From contig MEDY01000229.1 in assembly GCA_001724265.1 (NCBI GenBank), forward strand, positions 1-47,264: DNA of 47,264 nucleotides, written 5' to 3'. A program made the position numbers and the translations under genes. The number at the start of each line of letters is the position of its first letter. The first letter of the stretch is position 1. Origin of the DNA: Rhizaria sp. SCN 62-66 (lineage: Eukaryota). Below the pieces are notes generated by a model. The model ran no database searches. It was not told the DNA's origin and worked only from the letters and a program-made list of their open reading frames with translations. Below, piece by piece: positions 20,401 through 46,754 of the stretch.

Positions 20401-21602
20401 CCTCAGCGGCTTCGCTGGGACTCTTGGCCCACGGGCTCGCACGCGCGCTGCGCCGGCTGAGCCCCGCTGCGCTGGCCGCCGTGCTCGACTGCATGCTCAA
20501 CGGCTCACACAGCACCGCGGGTACCTCGGGTACCACGGGCTCCGCTGCGAATGTGAGCGCGGCTGCCGTCTCTGCGGCCGCGGGCAGCGTGCTGGAGATC
20601 CTCGAGGCCGTGCAGCCGCCCAGCGGTGTGGTCACGACGCCGCAGCAGACCGCGGCGCTGGCCGGCGCGGCCTTCCTCTGCGCCGCCGCGCCGCACGACG
20701 CCGACGCCGCGCTGTGCGGCCGCAAGTGGGGGTTGGCGGCGTCGCGCGCGCCGCTGCTGGCGGCGTTCCGCCGCGCGCTCAACGCGGTCATGACGACGCA
20801 CATCGTGCCCATCGTCGAGGCCTCGAGCGAGGACATCCTCGCCGCGACGGCCGGCCACGGCGGCCACGGCGGCAGCCACAGCAGCAACACGAGCTACAAC
20901 AGCACCCGTGGCGGGCACCGCCACACGGAGCACAGCGGCTCCACCTCTGCCTCGGCCGCCGCCTCCGCCGCGGCCGCGTCCATCCGCAACCGCGCGTCGC
21001 TGATCCCGCTGCCCGGCCCCGGCGCCGCCGGCGCCGTCGCGGTCGGCGGTGCCGCGCCCACGTCTGCCGCGGCCGCAGCTGCGGTCGCTGCCGTGGCCGC
21101 GGGCGCCGGCGCAGGCGCCATGGCGACGGCCTCTGGCTCCGCGGGCGTGGCTGCGCACTCGTTCCCCTACGCCGCGGTGCACGCGGGGACGGTGGGGCAG
21201 TGGACGCCTCACGTGGGGCGCGTGTTCGACCTCCGCGATACGTTGCGCCTCGTCTACACCGCCGCCAACGGCCACGGTTACGGCGTTGGCTGCAACACCA
21301 GCAACGGTGAGAGCGACGGCGTCGCTGCTGCGAATCCTGTCGCGGCGACCGAGCTCTCTGCGCAGCTGCAGGCGGCCGTGCTGGCCGTCGCCGTGGGCGC
21401 CGTGGCGGCGGAGCGGCTGCCGGTCGAGCTAGCCGACGCTGAGCCCGTCGCGGGCGCCGCGGCAGTGCTGCCGTGGAGTCACCTGGCGCCCGTGGGGCGG
21501 CCGCCGACACGCTTTAAGACGCTCAAGGACGCCAACAACAACCCCGCCGTGGCGGCAGGCACCCCGTTGGCGACGCCCGCGTGGTTCGACCAGCCCGAAT
21601 AA
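2431..21602 (+). CDS. DNAJC13: Giant divergent RME-8/DNAJC13-like protein (IWN-repeat/ARM scaffold), ~6,281 aa; exons 2431-2445 and 2772-21602
   Basis: Blocks are collinear with RME-8 IWN-repeat regions: EHATPTLIWAERNKVELLDAIQTEVEDF...WDHEGFDVTYPSLGRHLKVGAYYIRNLL (~4880-5080); RDYVISFLERLLTHPGNISRFVACNGVNTILYYIVQVH (~5600-5715); LVQLLVSESEDMVDGALRVL...TGVFLFLLY...LSPFLPPPFVRLL...GLLWTPFMRSDL...LVYEY...FPTHEQELYVGQVYVRVFN (~6680-7225); RSPSLLWG (~10090); RELTVDGVYLRVF (~10660); PSPLLWWG (~13630). A phase-0 intron 2446-2771 (GTACGT...CCGCAG) joins ATG GGT GGC ACG GTG to AGC GTT GAG. Ends TAA. May be a paralog rather than the orthologue. Confidence 0.8.
15645..15735 (+). repeat. Coding trinucleotide microsatellite (AAC)n then (GAY)n: poly-Asn/poly-Asp
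   Basis: Seen directly: gacgac aacaacaac...aacagc gacgac...gatgatgatgacgacgac, encoding DDNNNNNNNNNSDDSNDDDDDDDDDEDRDD. Confidence 0.9.
18288..18356 (+). repeat. Coding (GCN)n poly-alanine tract (>20 Ala), the longest of many in the window
   Basis: gccgccgccgccgccgctgccgcc...gct after EERA in the giant ORF. Confidence 0.9.
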
Positions 21603-22343
21603 GCAGAGTAAGCAAGCAGAGCGACGAAAGTAACTGTCGCAATGCTTTCTGTGAGTTTCTTATATGAGTGCGTTGTACGCTGTATATACGCATTGATTGT
21701 TTTGTTTCGTCTCTGTTTTTTATTGCAACTTGATACGTTGTACCTAGGTCAAATGATACTTGTGCTCCATGTTGCTTTTTTTTCCCCACTTTGTATTTGT
21801 TTTATTCACAGCCTACTTCTTTAAAAAGACCAAGTTTCCCTTTGATGTTATAGCCTTGTTAACGTGTACGTTTTTGCTCTTGTATGTCTCAAGCTATTTC
21901 CTCTTATTATTAGCAATGTCGACTAAATACAGCTATGTCGCTTATTTTCATCATCGCACTTCGTCATTACATTCGAGTTACACTGCGTGACACACACTTG
22001 ACGTCAGCCAGTGGCGGGTTGGTCGGGGGTTGGCTCTGCTGGAAGATGGCGTTATCGGAAGCGCAGTGATTGTGGTTCAAAGTTCGACGAATAGAGATGA
22101 ACTCTCACTATGCTTTTTTAGTTGTGCGCCTATATACATTTTTTAATAAATTATCTCAAATCCTGTCATATCCTTGCAGCCGCCTGAGCGACTGCTCTCA
22201 CCTCTCCCACTCCCCGTGCTCGCATCTCCCGACCCACTCGCTCCGCGCTTTCTTCATCAGCAGAAGCAGCACCACAACCACCACAGCAACTCGCACTTTT
22301 CCCTGACATTTTGTTCCCGCGCGTGCGTTCGTGAGTCGCCGCC

Positions 22344-24284
22344 ATGTCGTCCCTGCTGCACAGTCACGGGCTCGACGACTCGGACCTGGAGACGAGCTAT
22401 CTCACCGCCGCGTCCTCCTCCTCGTCCTCCGCCGCCGCGGCAGCCTCCGCCGCGGCCGCCGCGCGCCTGTTCCCGCGCTCCCCGAGCGACCCCGCGCACC
22501 CGCCGTCCTTTGCCGTCTCCGCCGACGCCGCCACCGGCTCCGGCTCGCACTCGCTCAGCGAGTCCGACCCGACGCGCCCGCCGTCGTGCCGCTCCCCCGC
22601 CTCAGTCGCCTCGCTGGCGTCCTCGGGCGCCGCGAGCTACGCCAACACGGACTCGGCGCTGGCCGCCTACGCAGCCGCGTCGGCCGCGTCCCTGACGCGC
22701 TACGGCAAGTCGGTCCCCTCGGCCGTGGGCGTCATCATGCCGCAGGCCTCGGGCCTCCGCGCGCGCGCCGCGCTGGCGTGGGCGCACTTCCTCGTTCACG
22801 CGCCCAAGGAGGCCTTCATCATGAAGAAGAACTACCGCCTGTTCTTGCTTGGCGCCTTCTTCCAGTACGTGCACTCGGTGGCGCACAACCTGGCCTACTT
22901 CCTCCACATCCCGAAGCAGCCGCTCTACGACCTGGGCTTCGCGGTGCTGCCGGCGATGCCGACGCCCGTGCAGATCGTGTCCGAGATCGCCTTCTTCATC
23001 ATCGTCGTCACCACGATCCTTTTCGCACTATCACCCTTTTTCCACGACAACATCGAGGACGTGCAGGCCTCGCTCCTTGCGGGCTCGCTCACAGCCTTCG
23101 CGCCCACCAACAGCAACAGCAACTATAACTCCGGCAGCTTAGGCTCGCCGCGCACAGGGAGCCGTCGCTTCAACAGTAACAGTAACGCGTTAACCAGCCC
23201 CGGCGGCTCCGTGCACCTGCCGACGCTGCGCAACTCCGCCTCGCACTCACAGGCCAGCCGCTCTGCCCTCGCGCTCAACGGCGGCGGCAACGGCAACGGC
23301 AACAACAACGACGACGACTACGACGGCGGCGTCCACAGCGGCGGCAACAACGGCAGCGCCTCCGAGCATCGCCAGCGCCACCGCGGCACGCACGGCACAC
23401 GTGGCGCTCATGGTCGTATGCTGACGCCGCCCAGCCTCGCCGTGTCGGCGTCCCTCAACCTCAACACGAACAACGCCCACGCCGGCGCCGTCACCGCCAA
23501 TGCCAGCGTCACCACCGTCGCCGGCTCCCCGACTCTCGCCCCCGCGGCGCTGTCGCCGTCTCCCCCGGCCGCCGCCTCCGCCTCCGCGGGAGCAGGAGGA
23601 GCCTCAGGGCTGCCCTCCGCCCTGGCCGTCCCTAGCAATGGTAGCGCCATCGGCACTGGCGGCCACTCGCTGCCGTCGTCGCCCTCTGGCAACAGCGCGA
23701 TGCGCGCGCTCGTGGCGGCGGACTACGCCACCAAGGCCGCCGCGGCCGCCGCCGACGGCGGGTCCGTCAACTGGACGGGCCCGAACCCGCCGCGGTACGT
23801 GGTGCTCTCGCTGGGCCGCTTCTTCGCCGTGCTGGTGCTGGCGCAGGCGATCCGCATCACGTGTTTCCTCGTCACCGCGCTGCCGGGGCCCAACTACCAC
23901 TGCCACCCGTTCTCGCCCCACTATGACCCGCCGACGACGGCGCTTGAGGTGCTCTTCCGCTCTGACGCCTTCTTCTCCTGCGGCGACCTCGTCTTCTCCT
24001 CCCACACGACCTTCATCGTGCTCTGCGCGCTCGCGTATCAGAAGTACGGCCGCATCGGCTGGCTCAAAAAGGCCTTCTGGGTGACCGTACTCTTCTTCGG
24101 CGGGCTCGTCGTGTCGGCGCATAAGCACTACTCGCTTGACATTGTTGTGGCCTTCTACACGGTACCGCTACTCTGGTACGCATACGACATCTACTGCCCC
24201 GACCTGGTGCCGAGCGAGATCGTCGCCTGGGAGGTCGCGCAGGCGCGCGCGCTAAACCCGCGCATCAACGACGTCCTTAACTGA
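22344..24284 (+). CDS. IPCS: Inositol phosphorylceramide synthase (phosphatidylinositol:ceramide inositolphosphotransferase), plant/protist IPCS/ERH1 type, single exon, 646 aa
   Basis: Motifs match plant IPCS in order: FFQYVHSVAHNLAYFLH...PLYDLGF; QAIRITCFLVTALPGPNYHC; SCGDLVFSSHT (D3, catalytic His); HKHYSLDIVVAFYT (D4, catalytic His/Asp). Several hydrophobic TM segments. GCCATGTCG start, TGA stop. Confidence 0.9.
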   Translation: MSSLLHSHGLDDSDLETSYLTAASSSSSSAAAAASAAAAARLFPRSPSDPAHPPSFAVSADAATGSGSHSLSESDPTRPPSCRSPASVASLASSGAASYANTDSALAAYAAASAASLTRYGKSVPSAVGVIMPQASGLRARAALAWAHFLVHAPKEAFIMKKNYRLFLLGAFFQYVHSVAHNLAYFLHIPKQPLYDLGFAVLPAMPTPVQIVSEIAFFIIVVTTILFALSPFFHDNIEDVQASLLAGSLTAFAPTNSNSNYNSGSLGSPRTGSRRFNSNSNALTSPGGSVHLPTLRNSASHSQASRSALALNGGGNGNGNNNDDDYDGGVHSGGNNGSASEHRQRHRGTHGTRGAHGRMLTPPSLAVSASLNLNTNNAHAGAVTANASVTTVAGSPTLAPAALSPSPPAAASASAGAGGASGLPSALAVPSNGSAIGTGGHSLPSSPSGNSAMRALVAADYATKAAAAAADGGSVNWTGPNPPRYVVLSLGRFFAVLVLAQAIRITCFLVTALPGPNYHCHPFSPHYDPPTTALEVLFRSDAFFSCGDLVFSSHTTFIVLCALAYQKYGRIGWLKKAFWVTVLFFGGLVVSAHKHYSLDIVVAFYTVPLLWYAYDIYCPDLVPSEIVAWEVAQARALNPRINDVLN

Positions 24285-25543: not shown

Positions 25544-28298
25544 TCACTGCTGCGGCTGCTGCTGCTGCTGCTGCTGCACGTCTGGCGCGGGCACGGCGGA
25601 GGGGTAGGCGGACTGCGGCGAGATCACGCCCACCGAGAGCAAGTACTCCAGTCCTTGCAGCGCGGCCGCCTCCCGCGGCGCCATGTCACGGAAGACGTGG
25701 ATGAGCCGCGCGATCGACGGGCGCTCTGCGGGGTCCTCGGACGTGCAGCGCGCGCACAGCAGCTTCATGTCGGCCAACACCTCCGTCTGCCAGTGTGGGT
25801 GCGGGGGTGGGAGTTAGTGTGGAGGGCATGCGAGAGCACAAAAGAGAAAGGAGTGGCATTGAGAGATGAATGAGTGTGATTGATGTGAAAACAGAGTGAA
25901 CATATCTTAACTCGAACAGATAGAAGAGGAAATAAGAGCTATTCCAATCTTACAATGCTTAATATTTAATAAATAGCCGTGATTATTACGTACAATGAGC
26001 CCAGCGTTGCAGAGCACCACCTCCTCAATTTCCTCCTCCTCATCTTCACAGTCGCTCTTTTCGTTGTTGTTGCTGTTGCGGCTCTTGCTAGCGGCAGCAG
26101 CAGCACGGCCATGCTTCTGACCGTGCGCGCTGCCCCCCGCCTTGTTGCTATGGGCAGCGGCGTTGCGCTCCCTGATCTGCTGCGCGAGCGTCACGACGGG
26201 CATCATGCGGGCCTCAATGACCATGAATGCGTCGGCCATCATAACGCCGAAGCCGTAGACGTCGGCCTTGGGGGTAAGTACCCCCTTAGCCGCGACCTCG
26301 GGCGCGCGGTAGCCGTCGGTGCCGATATTATTGCACACGCGGGTGGTCATGTCCGTGGCCAGACCCAGATCCAGCAGCTTCCAGACTTGCTTCGTGTCGG
26401 AGAAGCGCACGTTCTCGGGCTTGAGGTCGTTGTGCGAGATGCCTGAGTCGCAGGAAAGAATTATAAAATGCGAGAAAATGCGATAAAGGTGGATGTGTTA
26501 GCACTTAAAAACGTAATATTAACATAAAATACAACAAAATAAACTTGAATACTAACTTATTCGTAAATAATTGATAATGACGTGGTTATATATCGATATC
26601 GGTGAAAAGGATTGCGAGCGCCGTACCGAGGCGGTGGAGGTAGAGGATGGCGGTAGCGATATGCTCACCCAGCGCAGCCCAGGACCACGTCTGCAGCAGC
26701 GCCTGCTGGCGCGTGACGGCCAGCGAGTCGTCGAGCGAGAGTCCGTCGACGAACTCAAACACGATGCCAGGGCCGTGCGTGCCGTAGAAGCGCAGCAGGT
26801 ACGGGCACTTCCACGTCTCGATCTCGCTGTGTAGGCGATAGAATATCGTAAAAGAGACAAAATGAACATAAAGATCAGTATCTAAATCAAGACAAATAAA
26901 AATATAGAAATTGCAGAATTAAATCTGAATATAACACTTATTTCTCAATAATAATTCATATCGCCGCGATACATCCCGTGTCGAACGTACCGGTACATGA
27001 CGACCTCGTCGAAGCACGTCTCGAAGCTGTCCTTCCACTCGTCCCAGGAGCCCATGAGCGGGTACTTGACCACGACGCGCACCTCGCGCGGCGCGTGGCG
27101 CGCGGCCTCCGCGGCCGCCTCAGCGGCGGCCGCGGCGGCGGCCGCGGCGGCCGCGGCCTCCAGCTCGCGTGCCACGGTCAGCGCGTCGACGACGGGGGGC
27201 AGAGTGTGATTGTTGCCGTGTGCGGGGGTGGCGGGGGCGTGCGAATGCAGCAGCGACGCGGGCGCGTCGGAGCCGCTGCCGCTGCCGCCGTGGCCGTGGC
27301 CGTGGTCAGTGGTGGAGTGGAGACCGACGCTGGCGCTGTTGCTGAGGCCGCGGCCGCGTGTCGCGCGCGCCGCCGCCGCAGGCGCAGGTGTCGCAGCAAC
27401 AACGGCAGCAGCGGCGGCGGCGGTGGGAGCGGGCGTGGTCACACGGCGGGCCCCGCGGCCAGTAGCGGTAGTAGCGCTGGTGGCCGCGGCGGCCGCGGCG
27501 GCGGAGGCGCGGGTGGGGCGGCCGCCGGCCTTGGCCACGCTGCTGACGGCCGGGACAGCCACAGCCGCGGCAGTGACGGCGGCAGAGGCGCGGGTGCGGC
27601 GCGTGCCCTGCGTCTGCGAGTGGCCGTGCGCGGCAGCGGTTCCGGCGGTACGCGTGGCGGCGCGGCGCGTGCGCGGGTGCGCGTTCTCGTTGTTCTCACA
27701 GTCACTGCCATCGTCGCTGCCATCGCCGCCGTGGCCGTGGCGGTGGCGAGTGCAGCTCTCGTCGTCTTCGCCGTGCTCCTCGACGTCGCTGCCCGGGGCG
27801 TCGGGGTCCTCCACGCCAGAGTCGCACCCGCAGTCATCATTGCCGCAGGCGCTGCAGTGGCCCGAGGAAGAGGCGGCGGCGCTGGCGAGCGCGCGGCCGC
27901 CGCGGGCGCGTGTGGTACGCGTGGCCCGCGAGTTCCCGTTGCTATGACTTTCGCTGCTGCTGTTGTTGGTGGTGTCGTCGTTAAAGTCGGAGTCGCGGAC
28001 AAAAGACTCGTCGAGGTCGTTGCCGTCCCCGTCCTCGTCGTCGTCGTTGCTGTTGCTGTTGTTGTTGTTGTTGCGGCTGTTGTGCTGGCGGCGCGGCTGC
28101 TGCTCCTCCGCGATCGGCGCGAACGCGGGCGCGTAGCCGTGGGCCATCAGGTTGCGCGGGGGCAGCCCCGTCGCAGTTGCAGTTGCAGTCGCGGCGGCGT
28201 TGGCGGCGGAGGCGGAGGCACCTGCGGAGGCGGAGGCGGAGGCCACAGCGGAGGCCACGAGCTGCGCGCGGCGGCGCGTCATGGGTGTCTCCGCCACA

Positions 28299-30538: not shown

Positions 30539-31475
30539 GTGGAGTCGCCACACCACGCTACCACGTCACCAAGCAGACAGAGTACAGGGTGTAGAGTGCG
30601 CGTGCGGTGCGGCACGGCCCCGGTCAAGGCGGGGCGGCTGCGCTGAGTGAGAGAGGAACGCAGTCCGTCCGTCATGACGCTGCCCGTTTGCGGTGATGAT
30701 AAGACGAAGCGAAGACTCAACTCGCGACAGTGAGATGCAGAACAGCTTTATTCATGGCTAGAATTGTCACAGTGATAATACTACTTGCAGCAGTTACTTA
30801 CAATTGCAAGGAAGCCATGAGAACAACAACGTTACTTAGACTTGATATTACTTTACATTAGCGACTTTTAATACACTAGTTCATTTAGAATCCTTGTTTC
30901 GTGCACATTGAGAATGAAACAACTACGTAGCTTGTTGTATAAAGTATTATTACTCATGAGTTCGCAAACGGTTTACATGTACTTGTACGTTTGCATATAT
31001 CGCCGCTCGAGCTGCCAGTTAGGCTAACCTTGTATGCAATGCAATGATGACACATGGAGAGAATATTAAACGTTAAACACAAACTGCGACAAAACCGGCA
31101 AAGGATTAAAGGGTAACCAGGCCGTCTGCGCCGTTTGCGACGTACATACGGATGTACTGGACTAATCTAACACTGAAGTAAGAGAGAAAGGGAGAGAAAA
31201 CGACTCGAAGTCACACTGTGCAGCCAACGTGACTGCTGTGGTAGCAGCTAAAACAGACACGAAACAGAGACAAATAGACATTGCTGCTGGTTTATCAGCT
31301 TTAATTAAAAAACATAAATACTAATTGAATAGCACTAACCGCAACATTGAAATCAAATAACAAATACAAAACCAAATCGGACGTTCTTAAAATGTGAAGT
31401 ACAGACACAGTAACCGGGAACCAGACAGGAACCATTCAATATTGAAGCTTAACTTTCAGCCAAAAAAGATAATTA

Positions 31476-34400
31476 CTACTTCTTTGTCGCTACTTCACCG
31501 CTCCGCTGTGCAAGCTCCTCCCGCATCGCCGCAATGACCTCATCGACGGAAATCCACCACAAAACGGTTTTACGCTCCCTGCCGCCGCTACCGCCGACTG
31601 AGCCGTTACCACTCGCACTCGCGCTCGCGGCGGCGGCGGCGGCGGCGGTAGCATAAGCGTCGCTGTGCGCGCGCAGCACGCTGCCGGGCGGTTCTGAATC
31701 GTGCAAGACAGCGTACACGCCCTCAATATCACCCTCGTTGCCGCTCGCAGCGCCGTTAGCGCCCGCATTCGTTGCTGCTGCTGCAGTGTGGGCGGCGTTG
31801 ATTGCGGTCGCGGCGGCGGCGGCGGCGGCGGCGGGCGGCAGCCGCGCGGCGTAATAGTCCTTCGCGAACGCGGTCAGCAGCGTGTTGGCGCCCAAGAACG
31901 CGCCGCGGCCTAAATTCGACACATCCGCAGCACCAGCGCTATGGCTTGGCGAGTGCGTGCTCGCGCCGTGCGCGCCGTTGCCCCCAGAGGGCAGACGCCG
32001 CAGCTGGCCCGCCACGATGACCACGAACGCGTTCGCGAGCGGCGCCAACAGCGCCGCGGCCTCGGCCCCGCTCGCGGTCACGCACGACACGCCAACACCG
32101 CCACCGCCGCCACTGCTGCTGTCTGCCGATGCTGCTGCTGCCGCTGCTGACGCTGCCGTCGACGGCACGGTAACGGTGACTTTGGAGCTGCAGCCGGGCG
32201 GGGAGAACGACAACCGACCGACCCTGGTACCAGCAGCAGCGCCAGAAGCAGCAGCAGTGGTGGTGGCGGTGGCGGCGTGGAGGCGGCCTCCCTGGCCCTG
32301 GCCGTCGCCGTCGGCGCACGTATCGCCGATCTCGACCCGTTGCATGCGCTTGACCAGGCGCAGCAGCTGCAGCCTGTCCAGCAGCGGCAGCGCCACACCC
32401 GCCGTGGCGGCGACCGTGGCCGTGACGGCCTGGTCCAGCGCGCCCAGTAGCAGCGTCACGTCCGCTCGCCCCGTCGGCTGCAGCCGCGCGCTCGCGGGGC
32501 CCGGCGTCCCGAGACCTGGTGTCGCCGCACTGAGACTGAGACCTGGCGTCCCCGCGCCGAGGCCGGCGGCGACGCCGGGGGCGGGCGGGCTCTGGACCTG
32601 CGATGGGGTGCCGCTCGGGATGGGACTGATGATGTAGGCGCCGTTGTTCACGACGACTTTGCGCGCCGGTGACGGCAGCACCAGCGTGCGCGGCCGCAGC
32701 GGCGCCGACTGCGGCGGAATCCCGCCAGAGCCCGCCAGAACAGCGCCGCCGCCACCGCCGCCGCCGCCAGGGAAAGCGCCGCCGTCGAGCTGACCGTGAG
32801 CAGCAAACTGACCGTGGGCGTCGTAGCCAGCACTATCGCTGGGTGTGGTCAGAGAGGCGTAGTTTGCTGACGTCATCAAGTGCTCGACCGTGCTGCCACG
32901 GCGGCGCATCGCGGCGGGTAAGGGCCCCCTTACATTTCCGCTTACATTACCACCGGCGGCAGCGGCGTCGCCTGCGTTCCCGCCGACGACGCTGACGTTG
33001 AGGTCGCCGTAGCCGTAGCCGTGCTCCCCGCCGCCGCGCGCCGTGACTGCGGCGGCGGCCTCTGAGGCGGCGGCCACGGCGGCGGCCGCCGCGGCGGGGT
33101 CAGTCGCGGCGGCCGCGGCGGCGACAAAGCTCTGCAGGCGGCGCTGCTCGTCCTTGATCTGCATCGCCATAATGCGCAGACGCCGCAGCTCGCGCTTGGC
33201 CGCCACCGCAGGGTCCTCGGCCGCCTCCGCGCTGCTCGCATTCGCACTCGTACTCGCGGCGGCGGCGGCGGCAGTGGCGCCCGAGTCAAAACTAGCGCTA
33301 AAGCTGGCGTTGGGGTTGGGGACGTTTGTGTTGCTCAGCGTGCGCGTGTGCGTGCCGACGGAGCGGCTCTGGGCCGCCGCCTGCGACGCTGTGACGCCGC
33401 TGATGCGACTGACGGGTTTGCTCACGCCCGCATTGCCGGCGTAGTGAATGGCGTCTCCGGAGTCCTCAGCGTCGATGAAACCGCCGTCAGCCGCGTGGTC
33501 GCCCGCACTGTTGCTGTGATTCTTCTTGCTGCTGCTGTTGTTGTTATTGCTGCTGCTGTTGTTGTTGTTGTTGTTGTCTTTCTCGCTGAAGATATTCCAG
33601 TCGACGACGGCCGCGCTCGTGGCCGCCGCCACGCCCGCCCGCGCGGCCGCCGCGATGTCGGCGCTGAAGTGGCCGCGGGCGCCCGCATTTGCTTGCGCGC
33701 TGCCACCGGCAGGAGTGTTGTTCTTGTTCGTACTGGCGGTGAGCTCTGCGAGCTCCTTCGATGAGAAGTCGTCGAACTGGTAGCTGCCGCGGCGGGCGCC
33801 CGCGCCGTGGCTGCCGAGCCGCGGCGCAGTGCCAGGAACGACGGGACCACCCCCATGTGTTACCCCATGCGTACTGGGGCTCGCGGCGGCGGGGTGCGGC
33901 GCGTGCGTGCGCGGGCGCAGCGGGGACGAGGCGCCAGCCCCTCCAGCGCCGAAACCAGAGTACTCTCCACTTCCCGCGCCCGCGCCTGGGCCGCCGCGCG
34001 CGGTCTGGGGCGCTGCGACGACGGGTCTGGCCGCGGCGACGGGCACCACGGGGGGCTGATAGCCCGCCAACGCGGCCTGAGACTGCGACAGATGTTGTGA
34101 CTGGTACTGCGCCTGTAACCTCGACTGTGCCTGAATCTGCTGCAACTGCGACCGCGTATCGCTCACCGTTGTTGTGTTGCTAGCGTCGCCGCCATCTGCG
34201 GCGCCGCCGCCGCTGCCCACGGCCTCGTTGGCGTACTGTCTCTCGAAGTCGAGGTGGCTGAAGAGCAGCAGGAACACCCGCCGTGCGATTGCGTAGCACT
34301 CGACAGTCTCGGCGCCCGTGGCGCGCACGGTCGCGGTGCGCGGGACGGGCCGCAGCAGCGCCGCCTCGCCAAAGTACGCGCCCGCGGACAGCACGGCCAC

Positions 34401-35289: not shown

Positions 35290-36287
35290 CGCGGACAGAG
35301 GTTAGGAGTGGCTGCAAAGCTGTGATGGGGCTAGAAAGTGGGAAGAGTCACTGGGAGCGTGCGTGGGGGAGGCCGTTGTAGGGGGCACCGGGGGGGACCT
35401 CCGCGTTGAGCACAGCAACGACGCTAGAATCGCAATTAGATAGGCCCAAATGAGACTTCAAACCAATTGTTAAGTGGCTAAAGGTGGATGCAAGCGGCAG
35501 AATGCAGTGAAAAAGGACACCAGGTGCAGGAATAAAAGCAAAGGAAACGAAACAGTTGGGTGGTGGTGAGGATGAATATGATGTTACAAAGCAGGTGAGA
35601 GCGCAACTAGAGCTATAAACAAAACGGATTTGCGTATGAAATGACTTGAATTATCTTGTCAAACGCCTACACCAGCGCATACGGAGAAATGATCCAGATA
35701 TCGCCTTCACAAAAGTTCTACATTGCCCCAACGACTCTTCGTCCACTGGAGCAAGAAACCAAAAAGATCGAGCTAGACCGACGAGACTCGCGCTGCAAAA
35801 TAGCTTGCGGTGAGGCACGACGCAACACGGTGCATGCGCACTTGTGGGCCGTTATGTAGCAAATTCATGCTGATTTTCTGTTATTATGCTGAGTTTTGTA
35901 TTCTTGCATTAATATCCCACTTCCTCACCTCCCGTTATTTGCCCTCCAAATCCCCCCCGCGCACACCGGCTTGTCTCTCTTGTCCTGATAGGAACGATTC
36001 TCGCGCTCCGCTCCGCCCTGCGATCTCTAACTCTCAGAGCTGTTTCGCTGCGTGCCTCAGCTTCCGTTCTTCCTTTCCCCCGCTCCGCTCGCTCTAGCCT
36101 CAACAGCATCACCGTTGTCGCTAGCTCACGAGTCGTCGGTTCCCCTCGCCTCTTCTTCTCCAACACTTCAGTCGCCGCCGCCGCCGCCGCTCCCGCTGCC
36201 GCCGCTGCCGTCGACCCTTCCACCGTCGTCGTCACCGCCGCCACCCCCGACCCCGCCGCCGCCGCGCCCCGCCACCGCCACCGCCGC

Positions 36288-39010
36288 ATGTCCGTGAACC
36301 CGCTGAAGCGCTCTGCCGAAGACTGGCGCAAGGTCAAGGATGAGAAGCGTGCGCGCCGCGCCGACCTGCTCGCCGCCGCCGGGCTCGAGCTCTGCCCCGA
36401 CGGCCGCCTCAAGCCCGTCGGCACGGAGGACGGCACCTCGCCCGCCGCCGTGCTTGCTGCGCTGAGCCCCGACATGCTGAACCAACTCCGTCTCTTCCGC
36501 CCCGCTGAACACAACGCCAATAGCGCCGAGGATGGCGACGACAAGGACGTGCAGCTCGGCGAGGGCGGTGGCGACGGCGCCGCGGTGGAGATCCCCGCCG
36601 ACGCCGGGCTGGAGGCCGTGACGCCGCTGTTCCGCATGCCCTACTCGCGCCAGCTGCAGCGCAAGCGCAACGACGTCGTCAAGGTCCTCCGCAAGGCCCA
36701 GCGCGAGACGCGTTTCCTCTACAACCGCCAGGTACGCCAATAACAACTAGATCTAAACGTATATTAATTTCATTATTGTCTTCATATTTTAAGAAAACGA
36801 CTCAAAACTCACGAATATCATTATTTTTTGTTATTTTTTGTTGTTTTCTCTTTCACTGCTGCTAGGTCAAGGAGCTCGCGCTGGCCAAGTCGACCGCTGC
36901 GCCGCAGCCCTTCGCGCTCACCTACGCGGGGCCCAGCCCCAAGGACCTGATCTGCCCGCTGGGCCTGGTGACGCCGTCCCCCGTGCTCGAGGGCTACCGC
37001 AACAAGAACGAGTTCACCTTCGGCCGCGACGCCGCGGGGCTCAAGACGGCCGGCTTCCAGCTCGCGCGTTACGCCACAGCCGGCGAGGCCCGCGTCGGCT
37101 CCCCCGCCGGCTGCCTCTCGGCGCCGCCCGTCGCGCTTGCCATCGCGGAGCTCGTCACGGCCTTCGCGCGCGAGCGTGACGATCTCTCGGTCTGGGACAA
37201 GCGCTCTCACAGCGGTCTGCTGCGGCTGCTCACTGTCCGCAACTCGCCCACGCTGGGGCAGCTCATGGTTGTGGTCCAGGTCTCCCCGCAGGCGCTGGGC
37301 GGCGCCGACAGCGAGGCCTTTGCGGGCTTCAAGCGCGACCTGCTCAAGCTCCTCGTCGACAACTGCTACGCAGGCTCGCTCTCGCAGGCGCTCATCGACA
37401 AGCACAACGCGGACGTGGCCGCCGCTGCGGCCGCCGCGAGCCCCGAGACGGCGGCGCTGGTGCCCGCGCCCATCACCGCGCCGCCCGCGGCCGTGACGGC
37501 GCTGCCGCCCCATGCGCCCGCGGACGGCGAGATCACCGACAAGGCGCGCGCGTTCGCCGCGCTGTACGGCCACTCGCTTGCGTCCGTGGCCGTCGAGCAC
37601 TACAACGGTGTGTCCAACGTGTCGTCGGCCGAGTCCGCGACCGTGGAGCCGCTTTTCGGCGGCGCTCACATCTACGACCTGCTCGCAGGCATGCTCTTCC
37701 GCGTCGACTACCGCTCCTTCTTCCAGGTACGACTTTAACTAATCGCAGTATACCTCGAGTATATCAAGTTATCTGGAAATTGAAACAATTATTCATTGAT
37801 ATAATCGTAATATTTATCCATTCATAAAATATATCCTCGAAAATCACTCACCTCATCCCTCTATATTTTATATTCCTCGTAATCTGCGACTGTGCTTCCC
37901 CCCTCTCAGGTCAACCCGCGCGGCGCCGAGGGCCTATACGCCAAGGCTGTGCAGTGGGCGCTGGCCCCGCGCCACGACTGGAGCCTTGACACGCCGGGCG
38001 TCATGGCGCGCTACGTGGCGCCCAGCGCCGAGGAGGCCAAGGACTGGCTGGACCGCGTCGAGCGTGTCATGCGCGACAAGAAGGAGCGCGCCGACGCCGC
38101 CGCCGCCGACGCCGCCGCCGCTGTCACCGCCGCCGCTGCCGCTGAGAACGCCGATGCTGCCACCTCTGAGCCTGCTGCGGCTGCGGGCAACGGCAGCGGC
38201 GACAACGACGACGGCGAGGCGCTGGGCGCGAGCGACACGTCGCCGACCTCGCTGCCGGCGCTGATGCAGAGCGCGCTGGCGGGGCTCCCGCGGCTGCCGC
38301 TGGCGCCCGACGCGCAGTCGGCCGCGCGCACGCTCGTGCTCGACGTCTGCTGCGGCACCGGCACCATTGGGCTGACGATGTCGCGCCACGTCAAGCGCGT
38401 CGTGGGGCTCGAGCTGGTCCCCGCCGCGGTCGAGGACGCCAAGGCCAACGCCGCGCTGAACGGCGTCACCAACACTGAGTTCGTGTGCGGGCGCGCGGAG
38501 CAGACGATCAAGGCCGTGCTGGCCAAGTGCGCGGGGGAGATGGACATGGCCGTCGCTGTCGTCGACCCGCCGCGCAGCGGACTCCACAACGACGTCGTCA
38601 CCGCGCTGCGCGGCTCCAAGCTCAACCGCATCGTCTACGTGTCGTGTAACCCCGCCACGCTGGCCGAGAACGTCGAGAGGTACGCACAACGAATCAAACG
38701 AGCTGTTAATCTGAAATATGTGCTTTTAAGACTTAAAAATTTCGGTACATAGCTACATTGATGTGTTTTTGATTAGATGCTCACTTATTTCCTCTTATTT
38801 GTGTTATCTTGCATTTATCGTAGGCTTTCCGGCCCCTCGTCGAAGAAGTACCCCGGCACGCCCTTCATCCCCGTGGCGGCGCAGGCCGTGGACATGTTTC
38901 CCCACACGGCCCACTGCGAGCTCATCATGATGCTCGAGCGCAAGCCCGAGGCCGAGGCCGCCGAGGCTGCTGCGCCTGCTGCTGCTGCTGCGGAGAAGAA
39001 GGATGAGTAA
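36288..39010 (+). CDS. TRM2: tRNA (uracil-5-)-methyltransferase, Trm2/TRMT2 (TrmA) family, >=753 aa; exons 36288-36731, 36866-37726, 37910-38679, 38824-39010
   Basis: Motifs: VTPLFRMPYSRQLQRK; SPVLEGYRNKNEFTFG; GLLRLLTVR; SFFQ|VN across an intron; LVLDVCCGTGTIG (SAM motif I); GLELVPAAVEDAKANA; VVDPPRSGL; IVYVSCNP (catalytic Cys); AVDMFPHTAHCE. Three GTACG...AG introns in phase, TAA stop. The frame stays open upstream to 35913 (see findings). Confidence 0.92.
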
Positions 39011-39869
39011 AAGAAAAGCTGTATTTTATGTATTAGTGTGTTATACTAACAGTATTTTGATAAATAAACATGACAATAAGTTATAATACTTTCCCCGGTC
39101 TGTTATGAAATTAGGCTCATTAAAATTTACCCTATTTTCATTTAGAAACTCTTGCTTTTCATTTTCCTTCGAAGCAAGAAAGAAAATCGACGTGAGTGGC
39201 CTGTCATCGATCGAGTCGCAGAGAGGCCTCCGACTTCACAGTTGCCGTTCCGCGCAACGACACAGCCGAGATGCGTCGCTCGTGAGAGCTGTATGTAGAT
39301 GTATCTGCAGCGCGCTATATCATCGTCATTTCACTTTTGTCTTGATCCTTGGAACTAATCAATGGTGAATCTTCTTTTTCAAATCTTGACTTCACGAATT
39401 CTCGATCATACCAACGATGTATCCCCTGAAAACGTACACCGGTCGGATTGGCTTCGCACCGGCACACTCCCTGGCTTCACGCGCGCCTTGTCCCTGCCTC
39501 ACATCTTCCTCACTGCTTCGTATTTCTGTTTGCTTTATTACAGCACGCGTTTCGCCCTTCCCTCCACCGAGGACAAGGCCCGTTACCGCGTTTTCTGACT
39601 TCGCAAACCCCTCTTACACGTTCCGCTCAGCAGCAGTCGTGCTTGGCCCCCTCCTCTCGCTGCCAGCGTCCGCCGCCGTTGTCGTCGTCGCCGCCGCTGT
39701 CGCTGCCACCCGTCGCTGTTGCGCCTGCTGCCGCCGTGTCCGCGCCTGCGTTTGCCACTGCCGCTGTTGCGACCGCAGCAGAGGTCAAAGCGAAGCGAAG
39801 CGCTTGACTTGAAGCTCGTTATCAAATCAAACTAAGCTCTCTGCTTTGCCTTTGCTTTTGCGCCCCACG

Positions 39870-42800
39870 ATGCCCCTGCTGCTTCCGTCCGCCCGCGGGC
39901 GCGTTTCCGCGCTGCTGGCCTCCCTGGCCGCGGCCGTCGCGCTGCTGCTCGCCGCGGCCGCGCCAGCCGTGTCCCCCGTCGCGGCCGCGCCGCTGGCCTG
40001 GTCGGTCTCGGCCTCTTACGACACCGCGACCGACACCCCGGCGTCGGAGGACGAGCGGTCGTTCTTCTACCGCACCAACTGGGCCTCGGACCCCGAGACG
40101 CGCGTGCCGCTCACCACGGCCAAGGCCACCAAGCTCACCCTCAAGCTCACCTCCTCCCCGCCCAAGTCGAAGCTCAACGCTCCCACCACTAGTATTAGCC
40201 ATGGCGATGGCAGCTCCAGCTCTGCGGACGACGACGGCGAAGACCTCAGCCCGTCGTGTTTCGCGTCCCTGTGCCTGACGCACTTCGCGCCGCTGTCGCG
40301 CGAGTTGGAGCGCACCACCTCGGTCGAGTTCAGCTGGGGTCTGCACTGCCTTTGGGAGGCGCGGCTCAACACCAACTTCTCCCAGACCACCTCGGCGGCA
40401 GTCGAGACGGTGCGGCACATGCACGCGGGCCCGCTCTACGCCTCGGTTGGCATCCGCTACGTTCAGGCCACCGCCGTCGCCGCAGCCCTCAACGACCTGC
40501 TCGACCGCGGCCGCGGCAACGGCAGCGGCGACGACGACGCTGACTCGACTGGGCCCGTGACGGTCGCATGGGGCTCATGCAAGCTCGAGGCGAAGCTTGA
40601 GGCCGAGTCGTGCGACGGCGACGCCCTCATTACGGGCGGCGTTGGCGGCGTCGATTGCGGCCTCATCCCGATCCCGGTCGAGAGCTGGCCCTCCAAGGCC
40701 GCGCCGCTGACTCTGAAGCCCACCGAGGAGGCGCTGTTCGAGTACTTGCCCATCGCAGACTACCGCGCCAGTCAGCAGCTCCATAGTGAGCAGGCGGGGG
40801 CTGCGAGCGATGCCGACATCGACCCGTCTGCGTTTACTGACATTGTCATTGCGCAGGCGTACCTCAACTTCACCTTCCACGTCCCCGAGACGCACAAGAA
40901 CTTCATCAAGACTGCTAAGGCTGCTCAGACTGCCCGGAAGACCGGCGACGGCACTGCCGACAGCTTTGGCGACGAGGGCGAGGAGGAGGACGACGACGAC
41001 GACGTGGACACTGTGCCGACGCTGAGAGGGTACATCGCCGACAGCGTTGTGCCGTCGCTGTTGGTCGGCACTATGTCGGGCGGTTACGACGCCTACAAGA
41101 CGCTCTCGCAGGAGACCGCGGGACTGGACACGTACCTCAGCGTCGAGGCCATCAGCCCGCGCTTCTCAATCCTCACCACCGCGCCTGCCGCCCTGACGCA
41201 GTCTAAGGGCCTTACACATTCTAGTGTAAGTGCCGCCGCCGCCAAACCGTTAGCGCGGCTGAGGTACCGCGGCCGCTCCGTCGCCACAGGATCCATCGAC
41301 ACCAACGTCCCCAGCAAACTCTCTCGCGCGAGCGATTCTGCAGTGCAGAGCGAGGGCGATGAGCCCGGCGTGACCGACATCCCGCGGTCCCGCGCGTTCC
41401 CCCTCTACGTGCTGCTCAAGAACACGGGTCCCGTGCCCCTAGTCGTCACCGGCGTGACCGCCGAGGCGCCGCTGTGCCCCTGGGCGCGGTCCGGCGGCGA
41501 GTGCGAGCTCGCCTACAGCGTGCTGGACCCGCGCAAGGTCACGTCCTTCACATACGCGTCGTCTATCCCCGTCATTAGAGCCGGCGTCATCAAGCCCACC
41601 GAGCTCACCGGCGGCAGTCTGAGTACCCCCTTAGCCACCACCAGCGCGATTACCCCCACGAGTGCCCCCATGAGTTCCGCGCGCGCGTCCCTCGCCGCGC
41701 GCGGTCTGGCCCCCGCGCACCGCCTCTACACAAACCCGCTCCACCCAGCCTACGCGCGCTCCGCGGCCCCCATGCGGCCCCTGAGCTAGGCAGAGCTGCT
41801 CACGGTCACCCGTGACCAGGTAACTGCGCTCAGCCGTGCCAGCGCCAGCGGTCGGGTGACGGTGCCGCGTGCGTCGCTGCTCGGCGCCTCTGTGCTCTCC
41901 TCCTCAAACGCCCTTTATAACCACGTCAACAGCGTTGAGGCTGTTCAGACCTCGGACGCCCTCTACGGCAACTTCCACCGCGACGTCAATGGCAACACCG
42001 TCTCTGTCGGCGCCGCGCGCTCGCTGGGCACGTTTGCGCCCGAGCTTTACCTGCGCGCCGGCAATGTGCCGCTAGTGCCCGGCACTCTGGGCGCGCAGGG
42101 CACGTGGGACGCGCGGCTCGTGGGCAGCTCCGCGCTCACCAGGTACCTCGAGACGCCCGACATCCCCCTCACCGAGAAGGCGCAGTCCGTGGCCCATAGT
42201 GACGAGGCGGGGACCAGCGACGACGCCGTGAGCGTGATGTGGTACTACGCGACGCGCGTGTCGGGCACCGGCGAGGCCTTCGTGTGGTCCTACGACAAGT
42301 GTCCGAACGCGTGCTCGGGCCGCGGCTCGTGCGGCACGGGTAGTGACCCGCACGGCTGCATCTGCCAGCCGGGGTACAACGACGAGATCGACTGCTCGGT
42401 CGGACCGCCCGAGAACGACCCCGACGGGTTCAACCCCTTCCAGGTACGAGAAACAAACTGTCTTAAATATCGTGTAGATATCTTGAAAGTATAAGTGAAA
42501 TTATTATATAATCTGTGTCTTTATGCTATTTATTTTATAATCAATATTTGTACTGATTCCTAACATTCTCGCCATCAATTGTTCTGTTTTGCGTTTTCTT
42601 CGCAGCCGTGGTTCCTCGCCTTGATCGGGAGCTGCATCGTGATCATGCTGATCTTCATGAAGTGCCTCTACTCCGCCTGCCGGCGCCGCGGCAAGGCACG
42701 CCGCCATACGCGCCGCAGCGTGCTGGGTGACAGCGCTGACGATGGACTCGCCGGCACCGGCGGCGGCGGCAACCTGAGCGACCTCTCGGCGCTATCTGAC

Positions 42801-44225
42801 TACAACTACACGCGCGCGCACCACCCCGGCAGCACGGCCCCCGGCACGCGCGGCGGCGGCGGCCGCGGCGGCGACGGTGGCACCGCGATGCTCTCGCCCC
42901 AGTCGCGCGGCGGCGGCCCGGGCGGATACCTCCACGATAGCGACGGCGGCCACAGCGGCCAGGGCGGCTACGGCGTTGGCCACGGCTACGGCCCCACGGC
43001 GACCGGTGCGAGCGGCGCCGCGGGCATTGGCGGCGGTGTTGGCGGCGGCGCGGCTGCAAACGCGGCGAGCGCGCACCAGGCGGCCGCACTGACGGGCCTG
43101 CACATGGGACTTGCGCTGCACAACGACCCGCACTACGCGCATGCGCACGCCGCCGCGGTTGCATCGGTCGTCTCCGCCGCTGCGGCCGCGCCCAGCAACG
43201 GCGGCGGTCAGCAGCAGCAGCAGCAGCAACATCAGCAGCAGCAGCAGGGGCAGCAGGGTGGAGTCGCGTACTACACAAACATCGGCGCACACGCGGCCAA
43301 CAACGCTCACGGCGGCAAGAACGGCGGGGCCGCGGCTGCGGGCGCCGGCGCCGGCGCTGGCGGCTACTACGGCCCCGGGGGGGTTGGCGCGGGCGCGGGC
43401 GCGCTCTACGGGCTCGACGACCAGGTACGGGCACTTTCTTGTGCGAAATGCTATATCTCGATTATTTGGGGCTAAACAAGATTTCATAACTATAAAATCA
43501 AAGTACACTGAAATTAAAAGAGTATTTTATGTGATTATACTCTTGAATTTGTTTTAGTGTTCGTGTATATTGTGCGTCAGATCTCTAATAATATTGTTTC
43601 CTCTGTTGCTCTTTTCTCTTTCTGATTTGCTTCTTGTTCCTCAGGGCCTGGGCATGGGCGACCCGTCGCTGCACTCCTTCGGCGGCTACGGCAACGACTA
43701 CGCCATGGGGGCGGACTACGCAACCGCGGTGGAGCTGGGCGCCAGCATCGGCGGCACCGGCTCCGGCGGCGGCAAGAAGGAGAAGGGCAAGGGCAAGGGG
43801 AAGACTGGCAAGGCCGGCTACTTCGCCCAGGTCCACAGTCAGGTGCGTGCGCTATAGCAACATCATCGTGACCATCAATATGTGTCTATCAACAAACAAA
43901 TCTTGAGTTTATTGCTTGCATGTGTTGTCTTTTTGTGTTAAACTTAGTTTCCCTGCTCATATCTCATTACTCTCTGTTTTGTTTTGTTGTTATTGTTGTT
44001 GTTTTCCTCGCGCAGGGCAACCAAGCCGCGCGCGCGTCTCTGGGCAACGCCTCCGACGCGATCCTTATCGCCCCCCAGCAGCAGCAGGGGCTGCAGCCGC
44101 CGCAGCAGGGGCAGGGGCAGGGGCAGGGGCAGGGGCAGGGGCGTGCGGCGGCCGCGGCAGCGGGCATGACGATCGGCAGCTACCAGGAGACCGACTACGA
44201 CCCCCGCGTTGCTGGAACACTGTGA
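39870..44225 (+). CDS. Type-I membrane protein: signal peptide, large ectodomain, EGF-like module, TM helix, Gly/Gln/Tyr-rich tail; ~1,266 codons with an in-frame TAG at codon 640; exons 39870-42443, 42606-43424, 43645-43842, 44016-44225
   Basis: Signal peptide MPLLLPSARGRVSALLASLAAAVALLLAAAAPAVSPVAA. Ig-like LKNTGPVPLVV motif. EGF-like CPNACSGRGSC...CICQPGYNDEIDCS. TM PWFLALIGSCIVIMLIFM followed by basic RRRGK. ORFs 39846-41789 and 41856-42494 share a frame and are separated only by TAG at 41787-41789. Introns are GTACGA/GTACGG/GTGCGT...CAG, all phase 0. TGA stop. Confidence 0.75.
44106..44141 (+). repeat. Coding hexanucleotide repeat (CAGGGG)6 giving QG repeats
   Basis: cagggg repeated six times in the last exon; also a G-run array. 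Confidence 0.85.
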
Positions 44226-45291
44226 GCTCCCCATCAACTCGAAATCTAAACCAAGCGGTCGAAAGACTCTGACTCCTTGTCTCCTATTTGTTGCTGCGGA
44301 CAATGCTCTCGACTGATGCTCGTTTCTTGATTGTATATCTTTTTGTGTCCCGACTTACTGTGGACTTCTAAATGTAGCGACTGTACGTTGTTAACATTGT
44401 GCATAAGCTTGTTTTCCACTATTCCGCAGCATTGTCAAACAACGAACAACAAAACAAACACTGAAGTGCGAAGCCGTTTTTATAATTTATGCCATATCAA
44501 TCACTACTACTCGTGTACAGACAGTCCGTTGTTGCTCTATGCTTGCATGCTCTTATATGTAGTGTTGAACTGCATGTTATTTGCTGCATGGCTCGAAGCA
44601 TTTGCAATAATGCGAAGCTACTCCCTCCCCTATACTCCAAAACTTTTTTCGTTTTGTTTTCGCTACTTGAAGGACGGAATGACTATATATATCTCTGCGT
44701 GTATCTTTATTTTATCGGTGTGCTATCGTAACACTATATATCAATTAGCGTTAATTTTTTGTTGTTATAGTTTGGCTAATCGGATTTGTGCAAGGTGTGT
44801 ATGACTCCAACTTGTACAAGTACAGGTGTAACACAAAATCAAAACAATGTGTTACTCTTTCTAGACACAACAAGGAACAAAACGGGCATTATAGTGAGCT
44901 AATTTAGATTAATTACATTAAATTAGAAGTTTCAATTCGAAGACTAGAGTGTCTTATACACAACTAACTCATGCTAACTCCTTGATGGAACTAACAACAA
45001 GTTACTGTACTAGTACTAGTATAGTGTCATTTGACAATCAACGAGATGCATCTCCTGAATCATGTCAACGATACTCTCTCACATAATGCTGTTGTGCTTG
45101 GTCTTCTTAAATCCGTTTGTATCTTTAAAAATCTCATTGTGATTGTAATGAGTGTACTATTCAGAATGCTCACGATACAAAGACATATTACACTTAACAG
45201 CTGCTCAGACACTGAACACCTCATTGTGTATTGCAAGAAATAAGTAGAAAAGATTTTGATCATTGCATCATCAAATCAAATGATGGTATTT

Positions 45292-45363
45292 GTGCATGTA
45301 GCTCAGCGGTAGAGTACTTCGTTCGCAACGAAGGGGCCTCGGGTTCAAACCCCGACCTGTACA
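45292..45363 (+). tRNA. tRNA-Ala(CGC)
   Basis: Cloverleaf GTGCATG TA GCTC-AGCGGTA-GAGT A CTTCG-TTCGCAA-CGAAG GGGCC TCGGG-TTCAAAC-CCCGA CCTGTAC A. Has G3:U70 and A73, one acceptor mismatch (U6/C67), and is followed by a TTTCTTTTT Pol III terminator. Confidence 0.93.
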
Positions 45364-45757
45364 TTTCTTTTTGCCGCCCTTCGCAGCACCTTCGCACGCA
45401 TGAGCTGTTTCACGAGCGCGCCGGTGCTTTTTTTTCTTTCTCCATCCCTTCACATCTCGAGCACAATGTTGTTACTACTAATAGTATTAATAGTTACATT
45501 TTTTTGGCACAACATCAGCTGAGTGGAAAATCTACGCTCGCAAGATCACGCTGCAGTGACACACGTAACCGATCATGAATGACCTTCGACATCTTTGCGA
45601 GCTACTATTACGAACGGCACCACAAACAAAAACAAAACAAGCGCGGGTTTAACTCTGCTGTTGGAAAAACCAGCTGTGTGTCAACAGAGACAAAAACGGA
45701 CGTGCAAAAAATTATGCCGCGGGCAGCAGGCGAGCAGCGACGAAAAAAAAAGATATG

Positions 45758-45830
45758 TGTAGCTTGGGGGCATTGATCCCCCTGCCCCGCGCATGCTAAG
45801 CGCATACTCTACCATCTGAGCTAAAGCCAC
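45758..45830 (-). tRNA. tRNA-Ala(AGC), copy 1
   Basis: GTGGCTT TA GCTC-AGATGGTA-GAGT A TGCGC-TTAGCAT-GCGCG GGGCA GGGGG-ATCAATG-CCCCC AAGCTAC A. Has G3:U70, A73 and the A54 T-loop typical of eukaryotic tRNA-Ala; T9 terminator downstream. Confidence 0.95.
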
Positions 45831-46356
45831 GATACGTTTTACTTGTTACACGGACAAAAATTTTAACTACAAACAGTGAGCTTCTAAAACCAGGTGTTGC
45901 ACGCCAATCGCAGACCGACGGCGCCAGCTCAACATGCAGTAAGTGTATTAATAATATTGCTAGTCACACATCTGTACACAAATGAACGACTAATAATGCC
46001 ATATTTTGTATAGTAGACAGCTTTTTGGAAAACAATTTTGTCATCCAGCATAATTCTATACAGGTACTAGTACTAGTAATGCCTGTTTTCACGCCAGAAG
46101 ACAAAACTAAGTCACAGTACGTAAAGCTAAGGATGACAAAATCTTACTACTAGTACAACAACACTTGAAGTGACACTAATCTAAGTTAACACAACAAACA
46201 AAAATAAATTAATCAAGATTTCAACTTGAACAAAATAAAAATACAACAAGTTATTGGAAAGAAAGACATTATCCATCGGAATTACGCGTTCCCAAAAAAG
46301 CAATGCACTTAGCGCAAACGCGCCGCGTTGTTAACGCGGCCAGAAACAAAAGGATA

Positions 46357-46429
46357 TGTAGCTTGGGGGCATTGATCCCCCTGCCCCGCGCATGCTAAGC
46401 GCATACTCTACCATCTGAGCTAAAGCCAC
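46357..46429 (-). tRNA. tRNA-Ala(AGC), copy 2
   Basis: Identical 73-nt body to copy 1; trailer TATCCTTTTGTTT. Confidence 0.95.
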
Positions 46430-46537
46430 CTAGATTCTGACGCGTTTACACCAGAACAAAGCTCGGAATCAGCAACTGGAAGGCCGTTGCACCTCTGCTT
46501 GTTTACATCTTCGGGGAAGACTTGATTCAAAAAAGAA

Positions 46538-46610
46538 AGCCACCGGCGGGGCTCGAACCCGCGGCTAATCGGTTAAGAGCCGAACACTCTACCGACTGAG
46601 TTACGACGGC
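46538..46610 (-). tRNA. tRNA-Lys(CTT)
   Basis: GCCGTCG TA ACTC-AGTCGGTA-GAGT G TTCGG-CTCTTAA-CCGAT TAGCC GCGGG-TTCGAGC-CCCGC CGGTGGC T. Anticodon CTT; followed by TTCTTTTTT. Confidence 0.93.
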
Positions 46611-46681
46611 CTTGAACTGTAACGTTTGTGGTTGTTGCACATCCACATGTTACACATCAGAATGATGAACAAAAAGATATG

Positions 46682-46754
46682 TGTAGCTTGGGGGCATTGA
46701 TCCCCCTGCCCCGCGCATGCTAAGCGCATACTCTACCATCTGAGCTAAAGCCAC
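46682..46754 (-). tRNA. tRNA-Ala(AGC), copy 3
   Basis: Identical 73-nt body to copies 1 and 2; trailer CATATCTTTTT. Confidence 0.95.

Follow-up and report, generated by a model that had tools for sequence, protein, structure and literature searches.

Readthrough of the kelch and headcase type in Drosophila draws two long products from one pair of open reading frames (ORFs); the intervening stop codon is conserved, and the products have been demonstrated. A few protists, among them Rhizaria sp. exLh, Iotanema and some ciliates, use UAG as a sense codon. In viruses, type III readthrough, as set out in PMC3542737, depends on a UAG codon, on a G or purine-rich spacer 3′ of it and on a structure that is likewise 3′, the examples given there being gammaretrovirus gag-pol and the benyvirus coat protein (CP) extension. 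Restorative editing of premature stop codons within otherwise intact 'pseudogenes', with a preference for U at position −1, is described for Fusarium and Neurospora in PMC10776026, PMC4817773 and PMC11156358. Here we describe a gene of an uncultured wastewater or bioreactor eukaryote, carried on contig MEDY01000229.1 (assembly GCA_001724265.1; positions 1 to 47,264, the whole of this stretch being called the window below), whose reading frame is interrupted by a single TAG codon at 41787–41789. The codon lies within a 2,574-nucleotide (nt) exon, rich in guanine plus cytosine (GC), of a four-exon gene that, if read through, would encode a type I membrane protein. We conclude that the TAG is probably a plain, recent amber nonsense mutation.

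We characterized the reading frame on both sides of the stop codon. The stop-to-stop ORF 39813..41789 closes at the TAG and, counted from the ATG at 39870, comprises 639 codons, while the same frame stays open after the TAG over 41790–42494. Reading through would join 858, 273, 66 and 69 codons into a product of 1,266 codons. The preliminary description of this DNA, made from its letters alone, had reported the in-frame TAG, a further 218 open codons up to a GTACG donor, three well-formed downstream exons (with an EGF-like module, a transmembrane (TM) helix and a tail, and with no other lesion) and alternative products of 639 and 1,266 amino acids; all of these points were borne out, the donor lying at 42444. 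Between 41790 and 42443 the read-through frame contains no stop codon, against 5 and 7 in the other two forward frames. Composition does not change at the TAG either, as had also been noted: third-position GC is 0.85 in the 55 codons preceding it and 0.75–0.88 after it, with a value of 0.88 over 41790–42443. The absence of stops, the third-position GC and the homology described below place the coding nature of the post-TAG frame beyond reasonable doubt. The statement that no GTACG donor precedes the TAG holds over the interval that we inspected, 40900–41830, where the nearest approaches are GTACC at 41132, 41264 and 41623 and GTGCG at 41501. The three introns of the gene are rich in adenine plus thymine (AT), measure 162–220 nt and have a GC content of 0.29–0.38, in keeping with the window as a whole, in which exons are GC-rich (65–78%) and introns and spacers AT-rich (29–45% GC).

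The comparison that bears most directly on the stop codon is with P0002, an uninterrupted ORF of 1,011 amino acids on a JGI contig and the sole full-length relative that we found. It aligns with residues 57–858 of the read-through exon-1 product at 469 bits (E = 5e-155, 37% identity), the pre-stop part corresponding to residues 2 to about 545 of P0002. Around the TAG the window reads APMRPLS-stop-AELLTV and P0002 reads APLRPLA-A-AELAAV, with 10 of the 14 positions identical and an alanine opposite the stop; the TAG thus sits in a small conserved island inside an otherwise variable linker. The sense codon opposite it is known from this one relative only, at 37% identity. The correspondence continues beyond exon 1: the TM region matches P0002 residues 742–785 (E = 1e-4), exon 3 matches residues 924–982 (E = 0.004), both stopping at QVH(S/K)Q, and the end of exon 4 agrees with the last residues of P0002 at 8 of 12 positions, a weak match (E = 0.24) that includes the common ending ...VAGTL. 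The continuity and collinearity of P0002 across the TAG indicate that the ancestral gene encoded one continuous, predicted membrane protein.

The TAG itself is genuine genomic DNA and not an error of a single contig. L001, a contig of a JGI metagenome, equals window positions 41591–44249 at 2,659 of 2,659 bases, TAG included. Contigs from four runs were aligned to the window at a likeness of at least 90, and the Logan contigs of two of these runs, X2 and X3, cover 41563–43195 with no differences, again including the TAG. The 639-amino acid product ending at the TAG is present as P0012 on 4 contigs in a collection of 15 billion proteins, and the ORF called just after the TAG is present on 5 contigs as P0003 and on one, which is L001, as P0011. 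Window 31-mers occur in runs X1–X5 at shares of 0.43 to 1.00, and the runs are labelled as bioreactor, wastewater or activated-sludge metagenomes. Another of the four runs, X4, comes from a different study and shows two C>T changes relative to the window, at 40184 and 40199, within 16 nt of each other in the ectodomain part; these differences indicate that more than one strain exists.

We then considered which part of the protein the stop codon would remove. A profile search of 1.84 billion protein representatives returned only 10 proteins at E ≤ 1e-3, a number that includes P0001, P0003 and P0002, which are ORFs of the window itself or its one close relative; the gene family is almost unsampled. 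P0004–P0007 have a core in common, in which ...YLRxGNxP... and WYY... are accompanied by a six-cysteine EGF-like module, a TM helix and a basic stretch, and in which the tail frequently ends in GTL. The part of our gene that follows the TAG is this conserved membrane-proximal core, and the 639-amino acid fragment lacks it. A Pfam search of the pre-stop part of exon 1 (39870..41786) returned no family, and its signal peptide was called by eye from the translation.

The six cysteine columns of the EGF-like module are invariant in 6 family members (alignment A3). On this gene the Pfam family EGF_Teneurin reached E = 0.0049 and 17.4 bits against a curated cutoff of 24.3, and sub-threshold matches to it occurred in 5 of the 6 family members (best E = 0.003); the family profile matched the EGF region of reelin at E = 8.7e-5. 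The best feature score in the protein atlas, 0.89, was to a laminin-EGF cluster and lies under the lead threshold of 0.9. The arrangement resembles that of reelin repeats and teneurin-like EGF proteins in that the six-cysteine module directly follows the conserved ...LYLRxGNxP...WYY.... It differs from them in that all Pfam scores here fall under the curated cutoffs, the family numbers only 10 representatives and its AlphaFold2 fold is unreliable: for the 858-amino acid read-through exon-1 product, modelled from 6 alignment rows, the mean predicted local distance difference test score (pLDDT) was 39.5 and the predicted template modelling score (pTM) 0.39, which makes the model unusable. As to the C-termini, the last three residues are GTL in P0002, P0004 and P0006 and GVL in P0005, the corresponding window segment being 44199–44222, while the cytoplasmic tails are otherwise of low complexity and divergent. 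The GTL/GVL end may be a C-terminal sorting or docking motif. The features of the gene are collected in Table 1.

Table 1. Features of the interrupted gene, in window coordinates
Feature	Coordinates	Strand	Description
Exon 1, pre-stop part	39870..41786	+	639 codons; signal-peptide-like hydrophobic N-terminus, Cys-containing ectodomain; from ORF list
Amber codon TAG	41787..41789	+	Faces Ala of homologue P0002
Exon 1, post-stop part	41790..42443	+	218 codons in the same frame; best-conserved section of the family
Hairpin	41796..41819	+	24 nt; stems of 3 and 6 base pairs, 4-nt loop, −10.8 kcal/mol; background level
EGF-like six-cysteine module	42300..42395	+	C811 to C842 of the read-through exon-1 product; Cys columns invariant
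Intron 1	42444..42605	+	GTACG...GCAG, 162 nt, GC 0.29; P0002 collinear over the junction (NPFQ to TM helix)
Exon 2	42606..43424	+	273 codons; TM helix at about 42609–42671, basic stop-transfer stretch, Gly/Gln-rich tail; from translation
Intron 2	43425..43644	+	GTACG...TCAG, 220 nt; AT-rich island
Exon 3	43645..43842	+	66 codons; match to P0002
Intron 3	43843..44015	+	GTGCG...GCAG, 173 nt
Exon 4	44016..44225	+	69 codons plus TGA; C-terminus ...DPRVAGTL

Given these observations, the preliminary suggestion that a nonsense allele was as live an explanation as readthrough can be strengthened, since it is the nonsense allele that the evidence favours. Under this explanation the ancestral gene, which encoded a continuous type I protein with a signal peptide, an ectodomain, the EGF-like module, the TM helix and a GTL-ending tail, would have acquired an amber mutation recently. 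Ribosomes would now terminate at the TAG and release at most a secreted fragment of 639 amino acids without the conserved membrane-proximal part, or else the mRNA would be degraded; either way, the locus would be a null or truncated allele of recent origin. A single transition turns CAG or TGG, codons that occur 48 and 11 times in this gene, into TAG, and both strain differences in X4 are C>T. Of the point changes possible in the 1,878 coding bases downstream, only 2.7% would create a stop codon, so that an intact downstream frame is what a young pseudogene is expected to show. Like nonsense alleles and young unitary pseudogenes in surface-protein genes confined to one lineage, the locus has a single premature stop, an otherwise intact ORF and a sense codon in the relative; it differs from such pseudogenes in that no second lesion was found here. 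Read in this way, the TAG would be an ordinary premature stop in an uncultured protist's lineage-specific gene for a surface protein. Beyond the explanations weighed below, we leave the remaining probability to ones that we have not foreseen.

Several observations weigh against a nonsense mutation. All 626 downstream codons, the three splice-site pairs, the six EGF cysteines, the TM helix and the GTL end are intact, which is equally expected of a gene maintained by readthrough; the finding of no further stop or frame break in these codons, with splice sites intact, has weak power, given the 2.7% just mentioned. The polyA RNA library X5 has contigs before and after the TAG; the gene may therefore still be active in transcription, although the library may also contain DNA. 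Nor did four scans of sequence collections or the protein searches yield a close orthologue: a metagenome scan with alignment A1 gave 95 pattern matches and no confirmed orthologue, a second scan with a degenerate EGF pattern recovered only L001, that is, the same organism, and two scans that looked for mis-binned relatives among contigs of prokaryote genomes gave none each. Finally, the context of the stop, UAG-G followed by a purine-rich GCAGAG spacer and a stem-loop 7 nt on, formally fits the viral type III motif as PMC3542737 gives it.

The last of these points leads to the alternative that survives best, although we regard it as unlikely: readthrough of a type III-like kind, in which most ribosomes would release the soluble 639-amino acid ectodomain and a regulated fraction would accept a near-cognate tRNA at the UAG and produce the anchored form of 1,266 amino acids. 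A downstream ORF with intact splice sites and with conservation up to the last residue is what such a mechanism would preserve. The hairpin on which it would depend was correctly recognized in the preliminary description and is in fact somewhat larger than was described, extending over 41796–41819, but its stability is not above background. Among 1,500 random control codons, 16.9% have a hairpin at least as stable as −10.8 kcal/mol starting 4–12 nt downstream. The 114 nt after the stop fold with a z-score of +0.28 (126 of 200 shuffles at least as stable), and the 63-nt context gives −1.11 (32 of 200). A G at +4 is commonplace in this DNA as the first letter of a codon, first-position GC being 0.62–0.67. 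Moreover, the TAG position holds a sense codon in the sole relative, and the post-stop part is the conserved core of the family and not an optional extension. The earlier proposal of programmed readthrough thus retains its viral type III-like context and nothing further in its favour, the hairpin being at chance level.

Set beside the described systems, the locus shares with viral type III signals the UAG and the +4 G, and it also has their purine-rich hexamer and, about 7 nt beyond the stop, a compact stem-loop. It differs from them in being a cellular gene with a plain hairpin of −10.8 kcal/mol that shows no sign of a pseudoknot and has the stability of the background, in having a stop that is unconserved in the one relative, and in placing the core of a conserved protein in the readthrough part. 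With kelch and headcase it has in common a mid-gene stop between two long coding parts in one frame; the conservation of the stop across species and the demonstrated products set kelch and headcase apart.

Repair of the stop at the RNA level is a considerably weaker alternative, and we hold it to be quite improbable. In this case UAG would be edited to UGG (Trp, by A-to-I editing) or to CAG (by U-to-C editing), giving the full-length protein, perhaps in one life stage. The likeness to A-to-I editing in filamentous ascomycetes lies in a premature UAG within an otherwise intact gene, a situation for which PMC10776026, PMC4817773 and PMC11156358 document editing; the U at −1 that is preferred there is present in every UAG and so also here. 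The difference is that our UAG lies outside a hairpin loop in the predicted folds: in the 63-nt fold its A is an unpaired base that separates two hairpins, and in the 33-nt fold it is base-paired. A neighbouring TRM2-like gene did not place the host lineage, since its best named relatives are spread over animals, amoebae and chytrids. Contigs of the RNA run X5 and of X4 leave 41653–41833, and with it the TAG, uncovered, and those of X5 also leave the flanks 39300–39661 and 44187–44700 uncovered.

One contig of the X5 library, 43569–43836, comprises exon 3 and, ahead of it, the final 76 nt of intron 2, and the intron sequence in it shows that the library contains unspliced RNA or DNA. The X5 contigs revealed no splice joint of this gene. 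The joints that did appear in the alignments of the runs all have sides of 20–25 letters in GC-rich stretches of low complexity, and we treated them as foreign or repeat matches.

A switch between a secreted 639-amino acid ectodomain and an anchored, EGF-bearing receptor of 1,266 amino acids, whether worked by readthrough or by a life-stage repair of the stop through mRNA editing, must be considered doubtful. If true, it would be a rare case of recoding that controls the topology of a protein outside viruses, animals and ascomycetes; were the stop shown to be bypassed, the gene would provide a cellular example, from a poorly known and free-living eukaryotic lineage, of recoding that switches a protein between soluble and anchored forms.

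We think it very improbable that the TAG is an assembly or sequencing error over a true sense codon such as CAG. The depth of the X2 and X3 contigs is only about 7; these contigs are identical in size and possibly represent one data set filed twice, and several of the contig records with the TAG, which come from Logan, ENA and JGI, possibly derive from one or a few related samples. Against these grounds for suspicion, the window, L001 and the contigs of X2 and X3 all show the same letter, gene calls that agree with the TAG stand on 4 to 6 contig records of the three sources, and no bridging ORF occurs among the scored proteins of the collection. Specifically, a search for proteins of 471–1,502 amino acids that bridge the TAG gave 2 matches among 8,000 scored candidates, neither of them a bridging copy, and a search for those of 30–470 amino acids gave 1 match among 7,328, again not bridging. 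With the TAG present in several assemblies, a base-call error, which the preliminary description had rated on a par with its other explanations, has become unlikely.

An ENA gene call of the same gene, P0001, departs from the window after ...NTGPVPL, at about 41442, the position at which the Logan contigs of X2 and X3 also stop. Its last seven residues are presumably a translated sequencing adapter, and the divergence is probably an artefact of assembly rather than biology.

Less credible still is a spliceosomal intron that removes the TAG. Its best case is the segment 41623–41793, where a GTACC at 41623 and a GCAG ending at 41793 would take out 171 nt and keep the frame. This segment has a GC content of 0.74 and a third-position GC of 0.85, so that the third-position periodicity persists in it, against a GC content of 0.29–0.38 in four recognizable introns, and the whole interval 39864–42422 is without an AT-rich island. 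Among the residues that the segment encodes, NPLH and the APxRPL...AEL island flanking the TAG are conserved in P0002. Because P0002 residues are conserved on both sides of the TAG, which splicing would delete, we reject this intron, which had been named in the preliminary description as a way in which its reading could fail, and likewise any other intron over the TAG.

A reassignment of UAG to an amino acid throughout the genome can be put aside almost entirely: UAG-only reassignments do exist in eukaryotes (PMC5304391), but there is 1 in-frame TAG in 9,658 codons of the window and none in an ORF of 6,328 codons, a neighbouring gene with a cNMP-binding domain apparently ends in TAG at a boundary between coding and AT-rich DNA, and the window's five tRNA genes, four for Ala and one for Lys-CUU, include none that reads UAG. 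Apart from the TAG discussed here, the 9,657 confident window codons, 8,527 of them in four other genes, contain no in-frame TAG, TAA or TGA, which leaves the earlier idea of genome-wide UAG recoding unsupported. The terminators used in the window are TAA (the 6,328-codon ORF and the TRM2-like gene), TGA (a PAP2_C-domain gene and the gene described here) and a tandem TAG-TAA (the cNMP-domain gene). The last of these genes ends ...KK-TAG-TAA exactly where GC-rich coding sequence turns AT-rich, and its TAG is apparently a true terminator, the end of the gene being placed by composition.

A division of the locus into two genes was also considered and rejected. The post-TAG part has no start with a signal peptide, the only in-frame ATG lies 150 codons after the TAG, and P0002 is continuous across the position, from which it follows that the locus is not two genes. 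Gene callers should accordingly annotate one interrupted locus here and not two genes.

The neighbourhood of the gene contains several other coding regions. Immediately upstream, 35913–39010 holds a multi-exon gene for a TRM2-type tRNA (uracil-5) methyltransferase with its TAA at 39008; its best relative shows 68% identity, and those with a name are dispersed among animals, Balamuthia, chytrids and other groups. On the reverse strand, the tandem TAG-TAA of the cNMP-binding-domain gene (an ORF of 1,284 codons) occupies 31473–31478 and is followed by about 800 nt of AT-rich sequence, and a kinase-like C-terminal exon was recognized by eye at 25544–25813. A PAP2_C-domain protein is encoded at 22335–24284 (E = 2.3e-17). 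The forward strand carries, at 2616–21602, the uninterrupted ORF of 6,328 codons, which ends in TAA, has a third-position GC of 0.90 and contains no internal AT-rich island; residues 749–822 of its first 3,128 match the RME-8 N-terminal domain at E = 1.8e-12, and it is far longer than RME-8 proteins. Just downstream of the interrupted gene, AT-rich DNA at 45291–46754 holds the five tRNA genes: one Ala-CGC, three Ala-AGC with equal Rfam scores and one Lys-CUU.

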